Shown: positions 2,012 to 9,248 of the stretch, piece by piece
Position numbering within the stretch: the stretch's first letter is position 1
How the letters are laid out: every line of letters begins with the position of its first letter
Virus record (IMG/VR): IMGVR_UViG_2602041644_000006
Location: 1-9,831 of that record
DNA from: a virus
Lineage: Duplodnaviria; Heunggongvirae; Uroviricota; Caudoviricetes
Direction: 5' to 3' (one strand)
Length of the DNA stretch: 9,831 nucleotides
Made by a program: the position numbers and the translations under genes
The notes under the pieces: generated by a model
Database searches by the model: none
What the model saw: the letters and a program-made list of their open reading frames with translations, nothing else
What the model was told of the DNA's origin: nothing

Positions 2012-2095
2012 TTATCCCCATCGACAAATCGAGAACACAACAAACGCTGCTGCGAATACCACCCCCAGAGTTACGATTGCATCACGCCAGCTCAT
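2012..2095 (-). CDS. Candidate 27-aa hydrophobic micro-protein (MSWRDAIVTLGVVFAAAFVVFSICRWG)
   Basis: Hand translation. ATG at 2093-2095 overlaps the TGA stop of the DUF551-like gene (ATGA) and uses its GGAGGTG sequence as a ribosome-binding site. The product is essentially one transmembrane helix. TAA stop at 2012-2014. Confidence 0.25.
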   Translation of the reverse strand: MSWRDAIVTLGVVFAAAFVVFSICRWG

Positions 2096-3018
2096 TGATT
2101 CACCTCCTGCGGCGGTTCTGGCAGCGGCATCCAGTGGGTTACCTCCTTGAGATACAGGTCTTCGCCACCACCGTCATCCCAAGTGGGCTTGCCATCATTA
2201 AACCAGTCGCCATATACGCCGACCTGAGTGTTGGGGATGCTTGGTGGGTAGTTGTTTTTAAAGTCAGCAGCTAACACATAGCATTGTCGCTCTCCCATTT
2301 CTGGCATTCGCTCACTACAGCTTATCCAACCATCCGGAGTTACCGGAACTTGTGGAATGGCTGTCTGCTCTCGAACGTCATTAGGCGCTATAGGTTCTGC
2401 TGCCAACTGACTGGCATATTTGTTAATGGTAACGATAAGCTCTTGCTCAGCCTCATCCAGACAATCACCGATACCTCGCCTGTCACCGTCAAAATCATCG
2501 AAATCGGCACGAATCCTGGCAACCTTCAGGATTGCGGACAACACCTCACTAGGAATTGCCGGATAGTTGGTTGACGTTTCCGCGATTTCCCGAAAATTAT
2601 TGGTTGACGAATTCTTGTTTTCCCGAAAGTTTCCGGACTGAAGCATGGCGGCGCGGCAGGCGTTCCATATTTCGGCAGCAATATCGCGCTCGCTATCGGT
2701 TAATTTGTACGTTGAAACATAGCCAGAGAGCATTTCTACGTTTTCCGGAGTTGCTTCTTCAGGCACTACCGGTGCTGGAGGGGCGGCGTAAATGCCCTCT
2801 ATCACTAAATGTTTGCGCTCAAAATCATCTGGCTCTCGATGATATACGTAACTCCAATCACCAAGGTTATCATTGCGCCTGCAACGGAAACCTATCGGCT
2901 CTGCTTCCAGCGATGCCAGAGCAATTCGTGCCAGTTCCATTTGTTCGCCACGGGTAAGTCCGTTATCAAGCGGATTTTTAATGAATAATTCGATACGTTC
3001 TTTGGTAATAGTGGTCAT
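2092..3018 (-). CDS. Phage accessory protein with a DUF551-like C-terminal domain, 308 aa
   Basis: ATG at 3016-3018 preceded by AAGGTGA. The C-terminus (GDWFNDGKPTWDDGGGEDLYLKEVTHWMPLPEPP) matches the W/P-rich signature I recall for DUF551 domains found on lambdoid early-region proteins. The N-terminal two thirds are acidic and unassigned. Confidence 0.6.
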   Translation of the reverse strand: MTTITKERIELFIKNPLDNGLTRGEQMELARIALASLEAEPIGFRCRRNDNLGDWSYVYHREPDDFERKHLVIEGIYAAPPAPVVPEEATPENVEMLSGYVSTYKLTDSERDIAAEIWNACRAAMLQSGNFRENKNSSTNNFREIAETSTNYPAIPSEVLSAILKVARIRADFDDFDGDRRGIGDCLDEAEQELIVTINKYASQLAAEPIAPNDVREQTAIPQVPVTPDGWISCSERMPEMGERQCYVLAADFKNNYPPSIPNTQVGVYGDWFNDGKPTWDDGGGEDLYLKEVTHWMPLPEPPQEVNQ

Positions 3019-3020
3019 AG

Positions 3021-3212
3021 CTATTTCACCTTAATCTCAACATTTCGCAGCTTTAGCTCTACTGGCAGGTCTGACTTTCCTGTTAATGATAATGCGAGAT
3101 TTTCTGGAGTAATGAGAGCAGTTATTGTTTTCCCCCTCGCCAGACGAATAATCATTCGTATCTCGCGATCGTCACATGCTCCCGGTCGAACAATTGATAT
3201 TTGTCCGTCCAT
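3021..3212 (-). CDS. Hypothetical small protein, 63 aa
   Basis: ATG at 3210-3212 with an AAGGAGAG Shine-Dalgarno; separated by 1 nt from the upstream stop, and its own stop is 2 nt before the next start. Confidence 0.45.
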   Translation of the reverse strand: MDGQISIVRPGACDDREIRMIIRLARGKTITALITPENLALSLTGKSDLPVELKLRNVEIKVK

Positions 3213-3213
3213 C

Positions 3214-3708
3214 TCACTCTCCTTTGATGCGAATGCCAGCGACGCGTAATGCGTGTTCTAGGTCAATCAGGTAAAGCCAACTGCCATTTTCTTTAGGTAT
3301 CATGACATGTCGCTCATCTGCATTTATCGGGTGTCCATATCGAAGGTCGTAGCGAGTCGGTAATTGAACTTCCCGCGCTTCCAGTTCAGCAATACGCTTG
3401 CACCCATCAGAGATAACTCCCTCGTAATACTCGCGCTGCTCGTTGAGTTTTGATTTTGTCTCCTCAAGCTCAACGCGCAGCTTCCCTACCGTTAGCGCAA
3501 TATCCTCGTTCTCCTGGTCGCGGCGTTTGATGTATTGCTGGTTTCTTTCCCGTTCATCCAACAATGCCAGCGCGATATCTGGCGAAAAGTGCTTCATAAA
3601 ATCGTTAAGCGCATTAATTCGCTGATCGAAAGGCATTACAGGTGCTTCACCAGCAATTTTTGTTTTTTCAGCGATTTCACGAAGCTTTTGATAATCAATC
3701 TTGCTCAC
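3214..3708 (-). CDS. Ead/Ea22-like coiled-coil phage early protein, 164 aa
   Basis: GTG start at 3706-3708 overlaps the upstream TGA (GTGA) behind an AAGGAGG Shine-Dalgarno. N-terminus MSKIDYQKLREIAEK and a long charged helical middle resemble Ea22-family proteins of lambdoid phages. Confidence 0.5.
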   Translation of the reverse strand: MSKIDYQKLREIAEKTKIAGEAPVMPFDQRINALNDFMKHFSPDIALALLDERERNQQYIKRRDQENEDIALTVGKLRVELEETKSKLNEQREYYEGVISDGCKRIAELEAREVQLPTRYDLRYGHPINADERHVMIPKENGSWLYLIDLEHALRVAGIRIKGE

Positions 3709-4118
3709 TGGTTGCCTCCTTCGCGAAGCTGTTCAGCAATACTTACGCATATCTCTGCGCCTCTAATCAGCCCCGGAACGTTCTTGTTTGGCCCAACTTC
3801 ACCATCAACAAAATCAATCATCGCGTTACGAGCCATATCCACCCCCTGCGCACGTACTTCAGCCAGGAGAGCGTCGGTAGCTGGGGTTTCCGTGAAGTTG
3901 TCCTCCCAACCGTAGTACTCCTGACGACAGAAGTTATTAAATTCCTTCTCCGACTGTTTAAGCGCCGCATTCTCCGCTGCCAGCGCCGCGCACCTGGCCT
4001 CAAGAGCGGCAACCACTTCCTGATGGTCTTTGTACTTAACGTATGAGCCGGAGATGTCATCACCTTCGGTGTTTAGCCATGCGTCATTGCAATTCACTGC
4101 GTAGGTTCTGATGCTCAT
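3705..4118 (-). CDS. Hypothetical coiled-coil phage protein, 138 aa (start at MSIRTY)
   Basis: The track ORF 3705..4238 has a junk-like N-terminal extension. The internal ATG at 4116-4118 overlaps the stop of the upstream 60-aa ORF (ATGA) and follows GGGAGAG. Contains a helical segment ALEARCAALAAENAALKQ. Confidence 0.45.
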   Translation of the reverse strand: MSIRTYAVNCNDAWLNTEGDDISGSYVKYKDHQEVVAALEARCAALAAENAALKQSEKEFNNFCRQEYYGWEDNFTETPATDALLAEVRAQGVDMARNAMIDFVDGEVGPNKNVPGLIRGAEICVSIAEQLREGGNQ

Positions 4119-4297
4119 GCTGATGCTCTCCCGCCCCTGACAGACGCCAGGCCAGTCAATAAAGTATCCGCAATGCCTACCCTCAGACGTGCGCGCAGGA
4201 TAAATGCCGTTATGACCGGCAAAATATATGCTACCCATTCATCTTGCGTTGCCTGTTCCGCCGCCTCGCGCAGTTCTTGATAGTTAATGTTGCTCAC
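4115..4297 (-). CDS. Small ORF (60 aa) with an Ea22-like N-terminus; possible truncated or frameshifted paralogue
   Basis: GTG start at 4295-4297 behind AAGGAGG, in a junction module nearly identical to the one at 3696..3720. The first ~21 residues (MSNINYQELREAAEQATQDEW) parallel the start of the 164-aa Ea22-like protein; the remainder is low-complexity. Confidence 0.3.
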   Translation of the reverse strand: MSNINYQELREAAEQATQDEWVAYILPVITAFILRARLRVGIADTLLTGLASVRGGRASA

Positions 4298-4533: not shown

Positions 4534-4729
4534 GCTTCACCTCGATAGGCTTGATGGTATCGATCAGCAGTCGGCGGCGAGTATTTTCTGCAAAGTGGCG
4601 GCGTCCGGTTTCTTTGTGGTAAAACTCGTTTTTTCCGACGACCCACATCCGCTTTGTCTGGTGCAGTTTTTTTACCTGCGGACCGTCTCGGGTGATAACA
4701 ATTCCTGTATGAGTTTTTATCACGCTCAT
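4526..4729 (-). CDS. Hypothetical basic small protein, 67 aa
   Basis: ATG at 4727-4729 overlaps the TGA stop of the upstream gene (ATGA). Basic composition. Confidence 0.45.
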   Translation of the reverse strand: MSVIKTHTGIVITRDGPQVKKLHQTKRMWVVGKNEFYHKETGRRHFAENTRRRLLIDTIKPIEVKHV

Positions 4730-5088
4730 TTTTTATTCTTCGGTGCTTTCGGCATTACTGCCCAGTGAGTGATATTGACGTTTTCAAGGTCCCCGACCTG
4801 AAATGTCCACAGCCATTCTCCGGTTTCTTTTTGTCCCCAGGTGTACCAGAGAGAACGCCAGCCAATTAGCCAGCCTTCTCCGTTAGCATCAAATAACAGA
4901 ACACTTTCATTTGCTGGCGGCAGTTCAGCTGACACTGGTATTATTTTGTTTTCCAGTGCCGCGCATTTAGCTTCAAGCGCATCGAATTTACGTACCAGGT
5001 ACTCAGCATTTGTTTCATTCACTTTCAGATCTCGTGGTACACATTTCCCGCGAAGAAACCCTTCCATTTCGAAAACATTCATGCGCAT
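4726..5088 (-). CDS. yfdS: YfdS-like prophage protein, 120 aa
   Basis: ATG at 5086-5088 with GGAG 8 nt upstream. Length and position directly after a YfdR-like gene match my recollection of the K-12 CPS-53 yfdP-yfdQ-yfdR-yfdS order. The symbol is assigned from memory, not from an alignment. Confidence 0.55.
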   Translation of the reverse strand: MRMNVFEMEGFLRGKCVPRDLKVNETNAEYLVRKFDALEAKCAALENKIIPVSAELPPANESVLLFDANGEGWLIGWRSLWYTWGQKETGEWLWTFQVGDLENVNITHWAVMPKAPKNKK

Positions 5089-5615
5089 TTGCGTAACTCC
5101 GATAACTCGTTAAAACGTTCCATAAACATCCCGTAGGCATGGCCTGGTGACAGTGGAATAACTTTGAACATCTCTGTCGCCGGGATACCTTCCAGTACAG
5201 GCCAGAAAGAGCCATCATCAAGCCCGAGATCGCGACGTTCGGTTGCCAGCATAATGAGATCGGCATATTTCACTGGCGTGCTCATAACAGGAGGTAACCC
5301 GTATTTCTCACGGATTACGGCGTCTATTTTTTCTTCCATCCGTTTATAGTCAGGAAGAAGGCGTTTCAGTGGAGCTGGGATGTCCTGGCAATACGCTTCT
5401 GTTGCATCATGCATTAACGCTTCAAAAGCAAATTCCTGCGGCACCAGCTGGCTGCAAAGCACCGCATGTTGGGCGACGCTGTAGAAGTGAGAAAGATGAC
5501 CGGCAAAGCGACAGATATTTGAAAGGGAAACCGCGATATCGTTAATAACGATGTCATCTTTATTTATCTTGTCATAATAAAAATGCTTCCCGGAAAAAGT
5601 TTTAATAAATGACAT
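5079..5615 (-). CDS. yfdR: HD-domain phosphohydrolase, YfdR-like (5'-deoxynucleotidase family), 178 aa
   Basis: The track ORF starts on GTG at 5642; the ATG at 5613-5615 (MSFIKTF...) has a GGAGAA Shine-Dalgarno 5 nt upstream. H...HD signature is visible (AQHAVL ... LMHDATEAY). Size and neighbours fit CPS-53 YfdR. Confidence 0.7.
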   Translation of the reverse strand: MSFIKTFSGKHFYYDKINKDDIVINDIAVSLSNICRFAGHLSHFYSVAQHAVLCSQLVPQEFAFEALMHDATEAYCQDIPAPLKRLLPDYKRMEEKIDAVIREKYGLPPVMSTPVKYADLIMLATERRDLGLDDGSFWPVLEGIPATEMFKVIPLSPGHAYGMFMERFNELSELRKCA

Positions 5616-5708
5616 TTTGTTCTCCACGTATATGCGCTGCACCGCGCTGAATTTGGGTAAAAGGAAGCCCTCACCATCCGGTGATTATTGAGTTAATTAC
5701 GTTTCCAT

Positions 5709-5730
5709 AAATGCCCCCGCAGGGGCATTT
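5709..5730. other. Perfect intercistronic hairpin (9-bp stem AAATGCCCC / GGGGCATTT, 4-nt loop) between yfdQ and yfdR
   Basis: Read directly from the sequence. It sits in the 127-nt gap after the yfdQ stop, which is the only sizeable gap in the minus-strand chain. No adjacent U-tract on either strand, so it is probably not an intrinsic terminator. Confidence 0.4.
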
Positions 5731-5742
5731 GCAGTAATGAAA

Positions 5743-6567
5743 TCAGGCGGTGAAAGTACCAATAAAGGTTTCTACTTTGCTGTCTTTGAATTTCTCAACA
5801 AGCAGATCACGAAATTCGTTAGCCATATCTTCCTGCACCGCTTCCAGCTGAATAATGCGCAGAACCAGTACAGGACGATCGCCAGTGATAATGCTGAGGC
5901 GTAATTTAAACGGACGTTCTTTCAGACCTTCAAACGGAACGCATTTAAATTCAAATGCCACTGGCATAATGTCTTTGGTCTTCGCTTCGACAGATTCCAT
6001 CAGGGAGCGTTTGCCGCTGAAGTCATTATCTTCAAAATCAGCGGTCTGGTTTGCTTCAATCGTGATTTTACGGATTGCCGCAGCCGCTTTTGTTGCCTGA
6101 ATGGCGTCACCATTAGCATCAAAGCCCACAAGGTAGTCGGCCCAGTCTTCAATCCATTCTGCCAGTGATTTCTGGGAGTTACGCTCGCCGTTAACAGACA
6201 ACAGGGCAGAGAACGGTGCTGTCTTTTTCAGTTTGAGAGTGGCGGTGTTATCTGCGTGACCTGGTTCATCAATAGTACCCAGGTTAAGCACACTGACGGC
6301 ACGCATATTATCAGCATCGATAAAGCAGCGGGTGCCTTCATCTGCAAGATCTTTAGAATAACGGGTAAAGTCATCGATGCTGGCAGTGGAAAGCGCACCA
6401 CGGAAACGGAAGCGATTTAAATTAAATTTTTCCAGATCATGAATGCGGAAATTCTCAGGCAATGCCACAGCATCGGCACCAATCTTACTGATAATTTCAT
6501 TAACACCCTGAGCAGAAATAAGGGCATGGATTTGATTAATTGCGGTTGCGTCTAAGTTCTGAGACAT
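5743..6567 (-). CDS. yfdQ: YfdQ-like prophage protein (DUF2303-type), 274 aa
   Basis: ATG at 6565-6567 with a GTGAGGA Shine-Dalgarno. Length and position between YfdP-like and YfdR-like genes match CPS-53 yfdQ as I recall it. Confidence 0.7.
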
Positions 6568-6632
6568 AATAAGTCCTCACTATATTAAGATATTCAGTGA
6601 TGAGATAAATAATCAGTTAATTAAGAACGATA

Positions 6633-6995
6633 TTAATGACCTGCTGCGCGGAGTTTTCCGTCAGGTTCACCGGCAAGAGTCAGTAATTGTCCCTGGTCTT
6701 CCTGCAGAATAGTCAGGCGACCACCGCGATTGACATACATCGGCGTTTCGGTGGTGTCTTCTTCAGAAATTTTCCCGCGGTTAGTCGGGCGAACATATGA
6801 GAGTTTGTGTTTGATTTTCACACGGTTCTCATCAAACGGTTCGATTTCCAGGTTGAGCGAGACCTTACCTTTGGTTTTCGTGTTCATCACACCGGAAGCG
6901 ACTTCACTGAGAACTGCGCCGATTTTGGTTTCAAATACGCCGCCGTCCAGCTCCCCGATAAATGCCTGCACATCAGTACTGCGTTCGCTAGCCAT
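6633..6995 (-). CDS. yfdP: YfdP-like prophage protein, 120 aa (start at MASERSTDV)
   Basis: The track ORF 6633..7313 carries a junk-like in-frame extension across the GC-rich leader. The ATG at 6993-6995 has an AGGAGCAG Shine-Dalgarno and gives a 120-aa product. Confidence 0.6.
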   Translation of the reverse strand: MASERSTDVQAFIGELDGGVFETKIGAVLSEVASGVMNTKTKGKVSLNLEIEPFDENRVKIKHKLSYVRPTNRGKISEEDTTETPMYVNRGGRLTILQEDQGQLLTLAGEPDGKLRAAGH

Positions 6996-7043
6996 TTTGC
7001 TGCTCCTCATCATATCGACCCTGCAAGGTCGGTTAGTTTCTCC

Positions 7044-7132
7044 ACAAAACAGAGAAGAACACCTGCGGTGACTGCCGCCCGGATGGATTGGGTTATGAGC
7101 CCGTCGTCCGGTGATGCTCTTCTCTGTTTTGT
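7044..7132. repeat. 15-bp perfect inverted repeat (ACAAAACAGAGAAGA ... TCTTCTCTGTTTTGT) enclosing a 59-nt GC-rich insert with nested short stems
   Basis: Arms at 7044-7058 and 7118-7132 are exact reverse complements. The insert contains further complementary pairs (CCGGA/TCCGG, GCGG/CCGC). Confidence 0.6.
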
Positions 7133-7140
7133 AAAAAGGA

Positions 7141-7177
7141 CGGTACCAGCCGGAAGCAAGGGTACAAGCTGGTACCG
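7141..7177. repeat. 10-bp perfect inverted repeat (CGGTACCAGC ... GCTGGTACCG) with a 17-nt loop
   Basis: Arms at 7141-7150 and 7168-7177 are exact reverse complements, immediately next to the 15-bp inverted repeat. Confidence 0.6.
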
Positions 7178-7396
7178 CCAGGACTACACACAGCATAAAG
7201 TTGTGGTGCCGGGTGCCTCCCGGTGCCTGGCGAAGGTTGCACACCAGGCGGGTGGGTATCCACAGAAGGTCGACTGTCAGCCTCAACCTTAACCCGCGTG
7301 CGCTGAGCCGCATTCACCACAACGCTAAGGATTCTCTCTGGTTGAAAATACTTAGCTGTTATGTGCCTGCTTTTAGCCACATCAGGCGAGGTGGAC

Positions 7397-7448
7397 CTGG
7401 TTATTCCCCAACAACAAGGATTCGGTTAATCTGGTTATCCCCAACAAC
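7397..7448 (+). repeat. Two direct repeats CTGGTTAT(T)CCCCAACAAC, 34 bp apart, just upstream of the 7464 start
   Basis: Copies at 7397-7415 and 7431-7448 differ by one inserted T. A third partial CTGGTT occurs at 7338-7343. The sequence after each core diverges. Confidence 0.55.
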
Positions 7449-7463
7449 GCAAAAGGAAAAGAA

Positions 7464-7898
7464 ATGTCCGGTAATATCTACACGCTATACAAATCCCACT
7501 GTGAAAATGTTGGAAAGTATCGGGGCATTGAAATCAGTGGGGTAGTGTCATCAGTCGAAATAAGCAAAGTTGAATCAAGGGCAACATTACTTACTCTTTT
7601 GGACCTTGTCTTACATGAGCACCGGAAGAAATTCGGCACTCCCTATAATCAGTTGAATGGGAAAAAGGCTCTGGTTCACCTTATTCTGATGAAGCATCAC
7701 TGGATGCCAAAACAGATTAATGAGATGAAATTTGATGAACTTCTTCTTTCAATTCAGGATGAACTCACACTTGATAAAATAAGCGTAACCGCCCAGAAAT
7801 TTTTAGATTATCGAGACTGGAGATCACAAATTCATCACTTTGATGATTTTGACGAAAATGAATGGGATCCTAATTTGTCTGCACAATATCTAAAGTAA
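7464..7898 (+). CDS. AT-rich opposite-strand gene, 144 aa, unknown function (possible moron)
   Basis: ATG at 7464 preceded by AAAGGAAAAGAA. It is the only plus-strand gene left of cro, visibly more AT-rich than the adjacent leader, and its last 29 nt overlap the 3' end of the convergent 68-aa gene. I recognise no family for the product. Confidence 0.6.
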   Translation: MSGNIYTLYKSHCENVGKYRGIEISGVVSSVEISKVESRATLLTLLDLVLHEHRKKFGTPYNQLNGKKALVHLILMKHHWMPKQINEMKFDELLLSIQDELTLDKISVTAQKFLDYRDWRSQIHHFDDFDENEWDPNLSAQYLK

Positions 7899-8076
7899 CA
7901 TCCTGTGATAAAACCGTGATTTCCTGATCCAGTTTTTTTAAGGAGTCTATTGTTTCCTGTCGATAAGACAGCACTTCACGAAGCTGGTTTATAGCTGCCA
8001 GCTTCTTTGTCATCCACTCATAAATTTCCTCATCTGTGTAGCCAGGCGCGACGATTTTGGGTTCTGTTTTGTGCAT
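7870..8076 (-). CDS. First gene of the leftward early operon, 68 aa, unknown function
   Basis: The track ORF starts on TTG at 8091; the ATG at 8074-8076 has a GAGGAG Shine-Dalgarno 8 nt upstream. It lies downstream of the predicted PL and the boxA-like element. The N-terminus is not arginine-rich, so it is not obviously N-like. Confidence 0.5.
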   Translation of the reverse strand: MHKTEPKIVAPGYTDEEIYEWMTKKLAAINQLREVLSYRQETIDSLKKLDQEITVLSQDVTLDIVQTN

Positions 8077-8120: not shown

Positions 8121-8133
8121 ATTGTTAAAGAGC
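8121..8133 (-). promoter_or_regulatory. rrn-type boxA match (GCTCTTTAACAAT on the minus strand) in the PL leader
   Basis: Matches 13 consecutive bases of the E. coli rrn leader boxA (TGCTCTTTAACAATTTA) as I recall it. It sits directly 3' of a hairpin, in the boxB-then-boxA order of rrn leaders, about 45 nt upstream of the 68-aa gene start. Confidence 0.5.
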
Positions 8134-8134
8134 T

Positions 8135-8160
8135 AAGCGTCCTGTAGGGCGCTTTTTTGT
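8135..8160 (+). terminator. Intrinsic terminator on the plus strand (8-bp stem, UGUA loop, U6 tract); on the minus strand the same hairpin is weaker and has no U-tract
   Basis: AAGCGTCC-TGTA-GGGCGCTT followed by TTTTTTGTT. On the plus strand the stem includes one G-U pair; on the minus strand that position is a C-A mismatch. Positioned to stop plus-strand transcripts from the 144-aa gene before PL and cI. Confidence 0.6.
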
Positions 8161-8241: not shown

Positions 8242-8270
8242 AATCTAACTTAACTTAGTTATTATGGCAA
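8242..8270 (-). promoter_or_regulatory. Candidate PL promoter (-35 TTGCCA, 17-nt spacer, -10 TAGATT) overlapped by an operator
   Basis: Read on the minus strand: TTGCCA (8265-8270), 17 nt, TAGATT (8242-8247). The operator 8245-8258 spans the spacer and -10. It lies directly downstream of the cI stop, the expected position for OL/PL. Confidence 0.4.
8245..8258. promoter_or_regulatory. OL-type operator CTAACTTAACTTAG (CTAA-N6-TTAG family)
   Basis: Same 14-bp dyad pattern as the two sites between cI and cro. Extra CTTAG half-site-like motifs occur at 8281-8294 and 8303-8311. Confidence 0.5.
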
Positions 8271-8323: not shown

Positions 8324-8950
8324 TTAGAGTTCGTATTGAACTCCTTTGACTACACCAATGATAAGGCAATTACCATTGATAGGGATGTTGGGATACCGAG
8401 GATTTAATGGCACTAAAAACTTTTGAGGGCCATCGATGACTAATTTTTTTACTGTAGCTTCGTTTGTTCCATCAAGTCGAGCGATGACTATTTTTCCATG
8501 ACGAGGTTCTGCATCTGGATCTACAATCACTGTTGCGCCTTCTGGTATTGTTGGGAGGCCATTAGGGTTAGTCATGGAGTCACCTTTAACCTCTAATGCA
8601 AATGAGTTATCACCAATCTTTAATGATGTATCTACCCACTTGTCCACTTCACTAAACACTTCTGCTGCCCTGCACTCAGTAAACTGCCCAGCCTGAACCC
8701 ACGATATTACAGGAACTCTGCGCATGTTTGTGACGAGTTTGCCTTCAAACTCAGCACCATAAAGAATGTAATCTATTGACGTATTGAAGAACTTCGCTAA
8801 TTTCGAAAGTGCCTCCCCACCAGGGGTATTGATGTCTTTCTCCCAGTACCCCACAGCAACGTCGCTTACTCCACAAAATTTACCCAATTCTTTCTGGGAC
8901 GTTCCGGTAACTCTTCTCAGAGCTTTTATACGCTGACCAACCGTTTCCAT
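8324..8950 (-). CDS. cI: CI-type prophage repressor (HTH plus LexA-like S24 autopeptidase domain), 208 aa
   Basis: N-terminal helix-turn-helix (QKELGKFCGVSDVAVGYWEKD), an Ala-Gly cleavage-site candidate (VQAGQF), and the Ser/Lys dyad context (GDSMTNP ... TVKKLV). Divergent from a cro-like gene across an operator-rich 97-bp spacer. Confidence 0.9.
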   Translation of the reverse strand: METVGQRIKALRRVTGTSQKELGKFCGVSDVAVGYWEKDINTPGGEALSKLAKFFNTSIDYILYGAEFEGKLVTNMRRVPVISWVQAGQFTECRAAEVFSEVDKWVDTSLKIGDNSFALEVKGDSMTNPNGLPTIPEGATVIVDPDAEPRHGKIVIARLDGTNEATVKKLVIDGPQKFLVPLNPRYPNIPINGNCLIIGVVKGVQYEL

Positions 8951-9047: not shown

Positions 9048-9248
9048 ATGACAACTGACGATATCGAAAGCTACTTCGGCAGTATTGAGAAAGTTGCTGC
9101 TTTTTTCGGCATAACAACTGAAGCCGTTTATCAGTGGCGAAACCGTCCGGGCCAGTTAATTCCAAAAGGACGTGCAGCAGAAGCTGCATATAGAACTTGC
9201 GGACGGTTGCCATTTAAACCTGAGCTTTATGAAAAATCTAATGGATAA
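9048..9248 (+). CDS. cro: Cro-like small HTH regulator, 66 aa
   Basis: ATG at 9048 with a GGAGGG Shine-Dalgarno. Divergent from cI, with a helix-turn-helix-like segment (IEKVAAFFGITTEAVYQWRNR). Confidence 0.75.
   Translation: MTTDDIESYFGSIEKVAAFFGITTEAVYQWRNRPGQLIPKGRAAEAAYRTCGRLPFKPELYEKSNG

Follow-up and report, generated by a model that had tools for sequence, protein, structure and literature searches.

Escherichia coli K-12 carries the yfdP-yfdQ-yfdR-yfdS-yfdT cluster in the CPS-53 (KpLE1) prophage, and it is for these genes that a function has been described. YfdR binds domain I of DnaA via Phe46 (Noguchi and Katayama 2016, PMC4776307; K-12), and acts as a moderate competitor of DiaA and DnaB (PMC4776307). 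Extra copies of yfdQ and yfdR, in combination with either yfdS or yfdT, reduce initiation at oriC, with yfdP being dispensable; a yfdQRST deletion in K-12 has no replication phenotype, the effect on DnaA requiring over-supply (PMC4776307). The requirement for yfdQ is based on a deletion rather than a frameshift, such that a cis effect is possible (PMC4776307). Phosphatase activity has been reported for K-12 YfdR, with nucleotide affinities much below those of YfbR (as cited in PMC4776307). The block is also common in lambdoid early-left operons (PMC12315714, 2025). Published work thus already covers the block, the phage setting in which it occurs and the link between YfdR and DnaA. Few prophage segments in E. 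coli are as common, and the finding as first stated in an earlier note on this DNA adds nothing new. The only fresh point concerns the hairpin between yfdQ and yfdR, which forms stem 1 of a conserved leader that has three stems and is listed by no RNA database.

The window (the whole 9,831-nucleotide stretch of viral DNA that was analysed) encodes on its minus strand yfdP (6633..6995, 120 amino acids), yfdQ (5743..6567, 274 amino acids, DUF2303), yfdR (5079..5615, 178 amino acids, phrog_318) and yfdS (4726..5088, 120 amino acids, DUF551-like, phrog_583), the start of the last overlapping the yfdR stop by 10 nt. The assignment of a yfdP-yfdQ-yfdR-yfdS block to 6995-4726 was borne out by the comparison with the K-12 proteins that had been called for: all four are of the same length and in the same gene order as in MG1655, and in global alignments 119/120 residues are identical for YfdP (99.2%), 274/274 for YfdQ (100%), 175/178 for YfdR (98.3%) and 115/120 for YfdS (95.8%). 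This high full-length identity, between 95.8 and 100%, identifies the four predicted products as the K-12 Yfd proteins. The three substitutions in YfdR are all C-terminal, and the differences in YfdS cluster at a C-terminal mosaic joint. Relatives of yfdR use the ATG at 5615 rather than the upstream GTG at 5642. YfdQ matches DUF2303 (PF10065) over residues 7-272 with a Pfam score of 311.9 bits, against a cut-off of 26.6, and YfdS scores 21.0 bits (E 6e-4) against DUF551 (PF04448), for which the gathering cut-off is 22. No informative structural relatives were found with the models of YfdP and YfdQ. The window lacks yfdT, and a 67-amino acid ORF (4729-4526) takes its place. The proposal that over-expression of the cluster interferes with DnaA-dependent initiation agrees with the inhibition caused by multicopy yfd genes (PMC4776307), except that yfdP is not needed and the active set is yfdQ, yfdR and one of yfdS or yfdT; the minimal inhibiting set of yfdQ, yfdR and yfdS is present in full in the window.

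YfdR was also correctly recognised as an HD-domain protein, and is annotated as a 5'-deoxynucleotidase, as had been stated. Its relatives include the HD protein 2GZ4 (E 2e-13), and it has the HD phosphohydrolase fold and motif region in common with YfbR, the HD 5'-deoxynucleotidase of E. coli (PF12917). However, it falls below the curated cut-offs for YfbR-like proteins, both for PF12917 (24.2 against 25.9 bits, E 3e-5) and for NCBIfam NF003009 (19.9 against 122 bits), and DnaA binding is a property of YfdR that is not reported for YfbR. Judged by these profiles, it is an HD-domain phosphohydrolase but not a YfbR equivalog. Given the 98.3% identity to K-12 YfdR, the window protein is predicted to share its metal-dependent dNMP phosphatase activity, and would also bind DnaA.

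The block is flanked on one side by an integrase (1-1314) and an excisionase gene (1370-1606), and on the other by genes for an S24/LexA-type repressor with a GDSM motif (8324-8950) and a Cro-like protein (9048-9248). A candidate PL promoter (TTGCCA-17-TAGATT, 8242..8270, minus strand), a match from a consensus scan only, lies directly downstream of the repressor gene. It is followed by a nutL-like site (8122..8154, minus strand), likewise a consensus match only, in which a hairpin precedes the boxA-like sequence AGCUCUUUAACAA; this sequence (8122-8134) matches rrn boxA at 12/13 positions and is the sole such match in the window. No N-like protein was recognised in the window. Between this site and yfdP, an sRNA resembling the Rfam STnc100 / PasD prophage sRNAs is predicted at 7130-7353, matching the full length of the STnc100 model (RF02076) with 42.4 bits against a threshold of 47 (E 1e-6). 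An intact and native early-operon context, as opposed to the degraded one of K-12, had been suggested for the block. The integrase, excisionase, repressor and cro-like genes are indeed found, with the block between the repressor and PL on one side and xis-int on the other, over the 9.8 kb of prophage that the window covers; in K-12 such a context is lost from 18 bp upstream of yfdP, but that of the window is not new, as it is found in mEp460 and Stx2c phages.

CPS-53 resembles the window in its genes and their order, with a protein identity of 96-100% and only 1/127 nt different in the yfdQ-yfdR gap. The differences lie to either side. CPS-53 has lost everything upstream of yfdP, where a truncated replication gene lies 18 bp away, whereas the window keeps the PL-proximal region; downstream, CPS-53 has yfdT and torI, in contrast to the 67-amino acid ORF and different integrase of the window. 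Phages mEp460 (gp32-gp35) and 1720a-02 and the Stx2c-converting phages are 97-98.5% identical to the window in DNA sequence across the entire block, which likewise lies between the repressor and xis/int. They differ from the window in their immunity region and integrase, and in the accessory genes to either side. The same two small ORFs lie downstream in mEp460 as in the window, and the mEp460 annotation cites homologues in SfV (orf29-32).

The block is present in 3025/5426 complete E. coli genomes and in 49 phage records, which include the viable mEp460 and Stx2c phages, at the same early-left position; at best, a complete E. coli genome covers no more than 73% of the window. In 30 loci of other genera the order yfdP-yfdQ-yfdR is kept at identities down to 55%, with yfdS mostly absent. 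The sequences thus define a core of yfdP, yfdQ and yfdR that is conserved across Enterobacterales, with yfdS outside it, and the idea of a four-gene unit stands for the first three genes and not for the fourth. The region is a widespread yfdP-yfdQ-yfdR(-yfdS) accessory module of the lambdoid leftward early operon, located between repressor/PL and xis-int. As no recognisable recombinase gene is found between PL and xis in the window, and the module is in the middle of the early-left operon, yfdP-yfdQ(-yfdR) might be taken for an unrecognised homologous-recombination module in the exo-bet-gam/erf slot. This is very improbable: phage ArgO145 carries the cluster alongside a full Rec module, and the authors of that work deem a role in recombination unlikely (PMC12315714), mEp460 also has an exonuclease gene, and the models of YfdQ and YfdP are unlike Rad52, RecT, Erf and SSB folds.

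The gap between the yfdQ stop and the yfdR ATG is exactly 127 nt long (5616-5742), with one base different from K-12. Both this length and the perfect hairpin within it are as they had been described: 5709-5730 reads AAATGCCCC-NNNN-GGGGCATTT, a 9-bp stem with a 4-nt loop (UGCG in the minus-strand RNA), terminator-like in form and termed H1 here. H1 folds with -16.5 kcal/mol (z = -3.2), a stability reached by 1/200 shuffles, and has a mean of -15.9 kcal/mol over 93 relatives. It is kept with compensatory changes in relatives in which YfdQ is only 55-75% identical, and is more than a chance palindrome. The view of H1 as a lone feature of the yfdQ-yfdR junction fails, in that it is the first of three stems in an element that is also found where no yfdQ lies upstream.

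This leader begins on the minus strand at the stop codon of yfdQ and ends at the ATG of yfdR (5613..5745), and matches the covariance model built for it (R1) with 115 bits. H1 (5709..5730, minus strand) has three pairs changed on both sides among the relatives. H2 (5671..5684, minus strand) is a 5-bp stem, UCACC/GGUGA, whose loop varies and which is always followed by GGG; it is paired in 99.8% of alignment cells and has two pairs changed on both sides. H3 (5634..5647, minus strand) is a short GC stem, in which 5/5 modelled pairs have changed on both sides, around the near-invariant loop GUGCAG. The Shine-Dalgarno sequence of yfdR, GGAGAA (5620..5625, minus strand), comes next, and almost all of the aligned relatives have it in the same position. 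Among 93 distinct sequences 96.6% of cells in the leader are paired, compared with 85.6% after shuffling and 37-60% in slid controls. Changes on both sides are seen for 10/19 pairs in the same sequences, with a covariation score reached by 0/500 shuffles; as the alignment is fitted to the model and many of the sequences are close relatives, these counts do not represent independent events. RNAalifold recovers the same three stems. The H3 loop is GTGCAG in 86/93 sequences, while the loops of H1 and H2 vary, and the gap keeps a length of 127-144 nt in 221/235 loci. The covariance-model alignment was used because MAFFT alignments of the gap misplaced H2 and H3, and an alignment containing reverse-strand matches was left out. 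A scan of viral contigs with the E. coli YfdQ gave only loci of 99-100% identity, so diverged YfdQ queries were used for the covariation. A cmscan against Rfam 15 gave no match to the gap element at E<=1 in the window, and only spurious ones at E ~5 with a 181-nt stretch. Compensatory change of this kind identifies the gap as a conserved structured RNA.

Several other readings of the gap were tried and rejected. An antisense-strand element is disfavoured by the internal G.U pairs, of which there are 25 against 4 A.C mismatches in favour of the coding-strand RNA, and minus-strand matches to the model reflect the H1 palindrome only. A pseudoknot between UGCA in the H3 loop and an upstream GUGCAA fails because the E. 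coli and Klebsiella types lack the upstream copy. The small ORF ATG-GAA-ACG-TAA within the gap was seen by eye to be restricted to the E. coli type, with a different frame in other lineages. As to a promoter within the gap, the minus strand offered no sigma-70-like match, and the Serratia-type gaps of 81-86 nt, which keep H1, are too short to hold one separately.

The strong form of the earlier suggestion that the hairpin sets the relative expression of yfdQ and yfdR would make H1 an efficient intrinsic terminator, ending the yfdPQ transcript and giving a low yfdR:yfdQ ratio unless antitermination occurs. H1 has the GC-rich 9-bp stem-loop of such a terminator, at about -16 kcal/mol, the stem is found in every relative including those with short Serratia-type gaps, and the boxA-type nutL-like site in the operon makes control by read-through plausible. 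Of the eight nucleotides that follow the GC core, five are U in 63/93 sequences, four in 20 and three in 10. The window itself falls short of a U-rich tract (at least five U in eight), with four U in eight after the GC core (tail AUUUAUGG; after the full stem, AUGGAAAC), and a terminator scan of the window did not call H1. Furthermore, the A-U base of the stem covaries, the U on its 3' side being replaced by A in 19-20 sequences, which a U-tract should not tolerate. In K-12, the arabinose-driven pBAD-yfdQRST construct with its native gap, one nucleotide different from that of the window, yields prominent bands for YfdQ, YfdR, YfdS and YfdT without phage factors (PMC4776307). Because all four proteins are produced, a strong ratio-setting terminator is unlikely, and H1 is probably a leaky attenuator or a stability hairpin rather than a tight terminator.

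The leader is also found apart from the block. One locus (L240) has the element without yfdPQ, and about 24 viral loci have it without yfdQ or yfdR, some 490 nt downstream of a PL-like promoter; since a DNA pattern scan can match by chance, those loci in which yfdQ or yfdR was absent from the flanks were examined again using the covariance model. In prophages lacking yfdPQ the STnc100-like RNA is directly upstream of the three-stem element. The first genes that follow the element are unrelated, being yfdR, a phrog_14171 gene or a gene for a 175-amino acid repeat protein. The leader hence goes with the downstream gene block and not with yfdQ. By contrast, yfdP and yfdQ together behave like an inserted cassette, located ahead of the leader and delimited by H1 and by a similar hairpin, H0 (7014..7033, minus strand), which lies just upstream of yfdP at the left boundary. 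A hybrid H0/H1 hairpin is present at the joint in E. coli BS74R-D, which lacks yfdPQ, and many E. coli genomes have homology breakpoints at window positions ~5695-5726. These boundaries would suit hairpins that act at the DNA level in cassette exchange, with conservation reflecting a history of recombination rather than RNA function. This is quite unlikely: H2 and H3 are not at the observed breakpoints, and the compensatory pairing in all three stems, together with the excess of G.U pairs over A.C mismatches on the transcribed strand, argues for selection on the folded RNA.

What such an RNA would do is suggested by where it lies. In the absence of yfdPQ, the element is between the PL-like promoter and sRNA terminator and the first early-left gene, in the position of nutL or putL. 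With this position, the unrelated first genes downstream, and a loop fixed in 86/93 sequences on a stem in which every modelled pair covaries, H1-H2-H3 may be a dedicated cis-regulatory RNA, which a specific protein or RNA would recognise via GUGCAG; it could modify polymerase in the manner of nut/put sites, direct processing or act as a translational operator. This remains doubtful, as the HK022 early region gave no match with filters off, no boxA lies beside H3, no Rfam family covers the element, the H1 and H2 loops vary and no candidate binding protein was found. The broader statement is offered tentatively, with the chances somewhat against it: the gap would be a copy of an undescribed RNA motif of ~130 nt in lambdoid prophages of Enterobacterales, with three covarying stems and an invariant GUGCAG, which marks the head of the early-left block whatever its first gene, acts in cis (for instance as a loading or recognition site for a putative antitermination, processing or translation factor), and takes the insertion of the yfdPQ cassette at its first hairpin.

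The best explanation overall, to which a probability of about 0.7 is given, joins an accessory module in the PL operon, a conserved RNA leader and restraint of DnaA by YfdR. After induction or infection, the module would be transcribed from PL by RNA polymerase made resistant to terminators, the boxA-containing nutL-like site being just downstream of the PL-like promoter. H1 may then act as a leaky attenuator, as an end-protecting hairpin after RNA processing, or as both, and the invariant GUGCAG loop of H3 could be a sequence-specific contact for a putative partner. The products of the module would damp initiation on the host chromosome, and perhaps trim dNMP pools, during phage replication. 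The full upstream context, with its PL-like promoter, nutL-like boxA site and STnc100-like sRNA, is a natural setting in which to ask whether YfdR restrains host initiation as the phage develops, a question on which earlier work relied on multicopy artefacts in K-12. The covarying leader is carried by ~3000 sequenced E. coli genomes, K-12 included. Should it prove regulatory, it would be a control element of the early-left operons in lambdoid phages that is simple to test, and it may also account for the way in which accessory cassettes like yfdPQ fit into these operons.

Compared with known elements of such operons, the leader is not readily placed. A relationship to HK022 put was rejected, as model R1 with filters off scored at best 9.7 bits (E 0.23) in the HK022 early region, where Rfam likewise gave nothing. 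A lambda-type nut reading of H3 was also set aside, with no boxA within ~10-20 nt and the only boxA-like site ~2.5 kb upstream. The STnc100-like RNA (7130-7353) is distinct from the yfdQ-yfdR element, despite being its neighbour in the same leader region. H3 resembles boxB in being a short GC stem whose loop is fixed, but this loop is the hexaloop GUGCAG and not a GNRA-like pentaloop, and the leader has three stems where nut and put sites have two. What it has in common with tL1-tL3 of lambda, nutL of lambda and P22 and putL of HK022 is to be a structured RNA within a PL operon or at its head, with a terminator-like first stem.

The yfd block of this prophage, correctly recognised in the earlier note, is real but already known and very common. 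The sole point that goes beyond the literature searched concerns the hairpin between yfdQ and yfdR (H1): it forms stem one of a conserved RNA leader that has three stems and no entry in Rfam. All genes of the yfd region are encoded on the minus strand, and comparison with the proteins of E. coli K-12 MG1655 finds 119/120 identical residues for YfdP (6995-6633), 274/274 for YfdQ (6567-5743), 175/178 for YfdR (5615-5079) and 115/120 for YfdS (5088-4726), the five differences in YfdS being concentrated at its C-terminus, where the K-12 homology stops. A 67-aa ORF occupies the position of K-12 yfdT. YfdR is an HD protein, matching phrog_318 and, at E 2e-13, 2GZ4; its scores for the YfbR families fall short of their curated cut-offs. 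The 127-nt gap and its perfect hairpin at 5709-5730 (minus strand), both described previously, are confirmed: the stem is 9 bp, the loop 4 nt and the predicted fold -16.5 kcal/mol (z = -3.2). Over these 127 nt the gap differs from that of K-12 by a single base.

Among 235 loci with both yfdQ and yfdR (130 distinct sequences), the gap measures 127-144 nt in 221, 81-86 nt in 10 and is much longer in two. By inspection, the long-form gap contains three hairpins followed by GGAGAA and ATG: after H1 come H2 (UCGCC-loop-GGCGA, with GGG always next) and H3, a GC stem enclosing GUGCAG. The short Serratia-type gaps retain H1 only. A covariance model was built from 11 sequences, and 93 distinct full-length matches were aligned with it. 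Standard pairs make up 96.6% of the cells in this alignment, compared with 85.6% in column shuffles and 37-60% when the partner is slid by 1-3 columns; both-side changes are found in 10 of 19 pairs, across all three helices, and the covariation score is reached by none of 500 shuffles. These counts are not independent events, since the sequences are related, and the alignment itself was fitted to the model. RNAalifold, which was not given the model's structure, recovers the same three helices. When the coding strand is read, the helices contain 25 G.U-type pairs against 4 A.C-type mismatches, a bias that favours an RNA of the same sense as the yfd genes. No family in Rfam 15 matches the element, including at permissive thresholds on a 181-nt stretch. 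K-12 itself carries the leader, as do approximately 3000 E. coli genomes. That the leader is a cis-regulatory RNA, hitherto undescribed, in the early-left operons of lambdoid phages is a tentative reading, to which we assign a probability of about 0.35.

The earlier note suggested that the hairpin sets the relative expression of yfdQ and yfdR, and in its strongest form this would make H1 a tight terminator. The stem is indeed GC-rich (mean -15.9 kcal/mol), and the 8 nt past its GC core contain five U in 63 of the 93 sequences, but H1 is not called by a terminator scan, and the A-U base of its stem covaries, with loss of U on the 3' side in about 20 sequences. Tight termination is further opposed by the short-gap lineages, which leave no space for a separate yfdR promoter, and by the plasmid pBAD18-yfdQRST, which includes the K-12 gap and yields all four proteins as prominent bands in a host that lacks phage factors. 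Hence attenuation by H1 would be leaky at most, and the hairpin may also protect the transcript end after processing; a putative tuning of the yfdQ:yfdR ratio is plausible only as a weak effect. All five pairs of the H3 stem covary, yet its loop reads GTGCAG in 86 of 93 sequences, an invariance suggesting that the loop has a specific partner. A nut-type identity for H3 was rejected, as boxA was not found beside it, and a relation of the element to HK022 was rejected for want of similarity to the HK022 early region.

The element is not tied to yfdQ. Approximately 29 further loci, found by a DNA pattern scan of viral contigs and each re-checked with the covariance model, carry the full element (65-92 bits) with no YfdQ match upstream. 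In four to five of these yfdR comes next, while most of the others have an unrelated protein of 119-160 aa (phrog_14171 for the one tested). In one such phage, L266, the gene for this protein is followed by a ParB-like gene. Here some 490 nt separate the element from a PL-like promoter upstream, and the first early-left gene comes directly after the element; in the stretch from promoter to leader (6668-7544 of that contig), repeated TTGGTAC operator-like motifs surround the promoter. In prophages of Symbiopectobacterium (L009, 4947-5474) and Serratia marcescens, the three-stem leader and yfdR are separated by an inserted gene for a 175-aa protein, and the H3 loop is altered to GUGGAG. This protein has ITSLPEGL repeats, and its stop codon overlaps the yfdR start. 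As the element occurs without yfdQ upstream and before differing first genes, it is a leader for whichever gene block follows in the early-left operon.

The prophage of E. coli BS74R-D has yfdR and yfdS without yfdPQ, and there the sequence that the window has ahead of yfdP passes straight into H1-H2-H3. An H1-like hairpin, H0 (7014-7033, minus strand), lies just upstream of yfdP, and the hairpin at the BS74R-D joint (3985-4010) is an H0/H1 hybrid, with which homology breakpoints in other E. coli genomes coincide in position. On the basis of this joint and the matching breakpoints, yfdPQ behaves as a cassette with H0 and H1 as its borders; given the hybrid in a yfdPQ-less prophage, it looks to have been gained or lost through exchange at these hairpins. 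Just upstream of H0, GGAGAAACUAACC is the ribosome-binding region of the first gene in yfdPQ-less phages.

Several features further upstream may affect expression of the block. A promoter scan places a PL-like promoter (8270-8242, minus strand) next to, and after, the repressor gene. About 90 nt downstream is a hairpin (8154-8135, minus strand), directly followed by AGCUCUUUAACAA, a 12/13 match to the rrn boxA and the sole such site in the window. With the hairpin before boxA, as in rrn, the site (8122-8154, minus strand) looks like a nutL-type element, and since such a site is present the downstream hairpins would probably be read through in lytic growth. No N-like protein is recognised in the window, and the first early-left ORF (73 aa, 8091-7870, minus strand), between this site and yfdP, is without an arginine-rich N-terminus. 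Converging on it, with a 29-bp overlap, is a plus-strand ECs1072-family phage gene (7464-7898) with its own terminator-like hairpin (7980-8005, plus strand); this gene is a moron-like insert within the PL operon, where polymerases transcribing it would run into those coming from PL. Next is a full-length match (7353-7130, minus strand; 42.4 bits against a gathering score of 47, E 1e-6) to Rfam STnc100, of the prophage sRNA family STnc100/PasD that a 2026 preprint discusses. It ends in a strong terminator hairpin (7141-7177) and a U-run, and the same RNA lies ahead of the leader in BS74R-D (43.1 bits). The RNA preceding the element in L266 resembles it in its 3'/terminator region and gives no STnc100 call by cmscan at E<0.001. 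Between the sRNA terminator and yfdP, an inverted repeat (7044-7132, minus strand) with 25-nt arms, 84% complementary and enclosing 39 nt, is also conserved in BS74R-D; the 151-nt RNA 7140-6990 folds at -61.9 kcal/mol (z = -6.0). Long duplexes of this type are the kind cut by RNase III.

The link between the cluster and DnaA was given correctly in the earlier note, although the gene set was not: Noguchi and Katayama found the K-12 yfd cluster as a multicopy suppressor of hda-185, an effect for which yfdP is not needed (PMC4776307). In that study yfd plasmids lowered initiation in wild-type, dnaAcos, seqA, DARS and diaA backgrounds, DnaA pulled down YfdR alone among the Yfd proteins, via domains I-II and Phe46, and deletion of yfdQRST had no phenotype (PMC4776307). 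The requirement for yfdQ in replication inhibition was drawn from an HpaI-BamHI deletion; for yfdR and yfdS the mutations were frameshifts (PMC4776307). Because yfdQ was deleted, a cis role of the yfdQ region on yfdR expression is possible, through loss of a promoter or of some transcript sequence preceding the leader.

Of 5426 complete E. coli genomes, 3025 contain the 2270-bp block (at least 95% identity). So do 49 phage records, among them mEp460, phage 1720a-02, many Stx2c-converting phages and Shigella phages. With YfdQ as bait, 32 loci were collected from other species; the order yfdP-yfdQ-yfdR is retained in loci ranging from Buttiauxella, with 75% YfdQ identity, to Serratia, Erwinia and Klebsiella, with 55-58%. 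Only the two E. coli genomes have a YfdS homologue beside yfdR, three other loci giving scattered partial matches, and the conserved core module is P-Q-R. In complete E. coli genomes, coverage of the window in one place reaches 73% at most, and some match of 96-100% identity exists for each segment; the prophage is thus a new mosaic of known parts. In strain cS91a, which is 100% identical over the yfd block, the matching integrase adjoins yecE. The window's 2092-4238 stretch (minus strand), annotated partly as pseudogenes in cS91a, holds several ead/Ea22-like and DUF551-type ORFs sharing N- or C-terminal segments, and phrog_614 matches both YfdS and a 177-aa ORF here; modules are evidently being actively shuffled in this stretch.

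The native early-left context proposed for the block is borne out by its position between a LexA/S24-type repressor gene (8324-8950) upstream and xis (1370-1606) and int (1-1314) downstream, all on the minus strand. This context has been visible for years in sequenced phages. In mEp460, where the annotation refers to SfV orf29-32, the block likewise lies between an S24-type repressor and excisionase/integrase, with the same two small ORFs next as in the window. The K-12 copy, by contrast, is decapitated: 18 bp separate yfdP from the start of a truncated replication gene upstream, and the integrase is at the element's far end.
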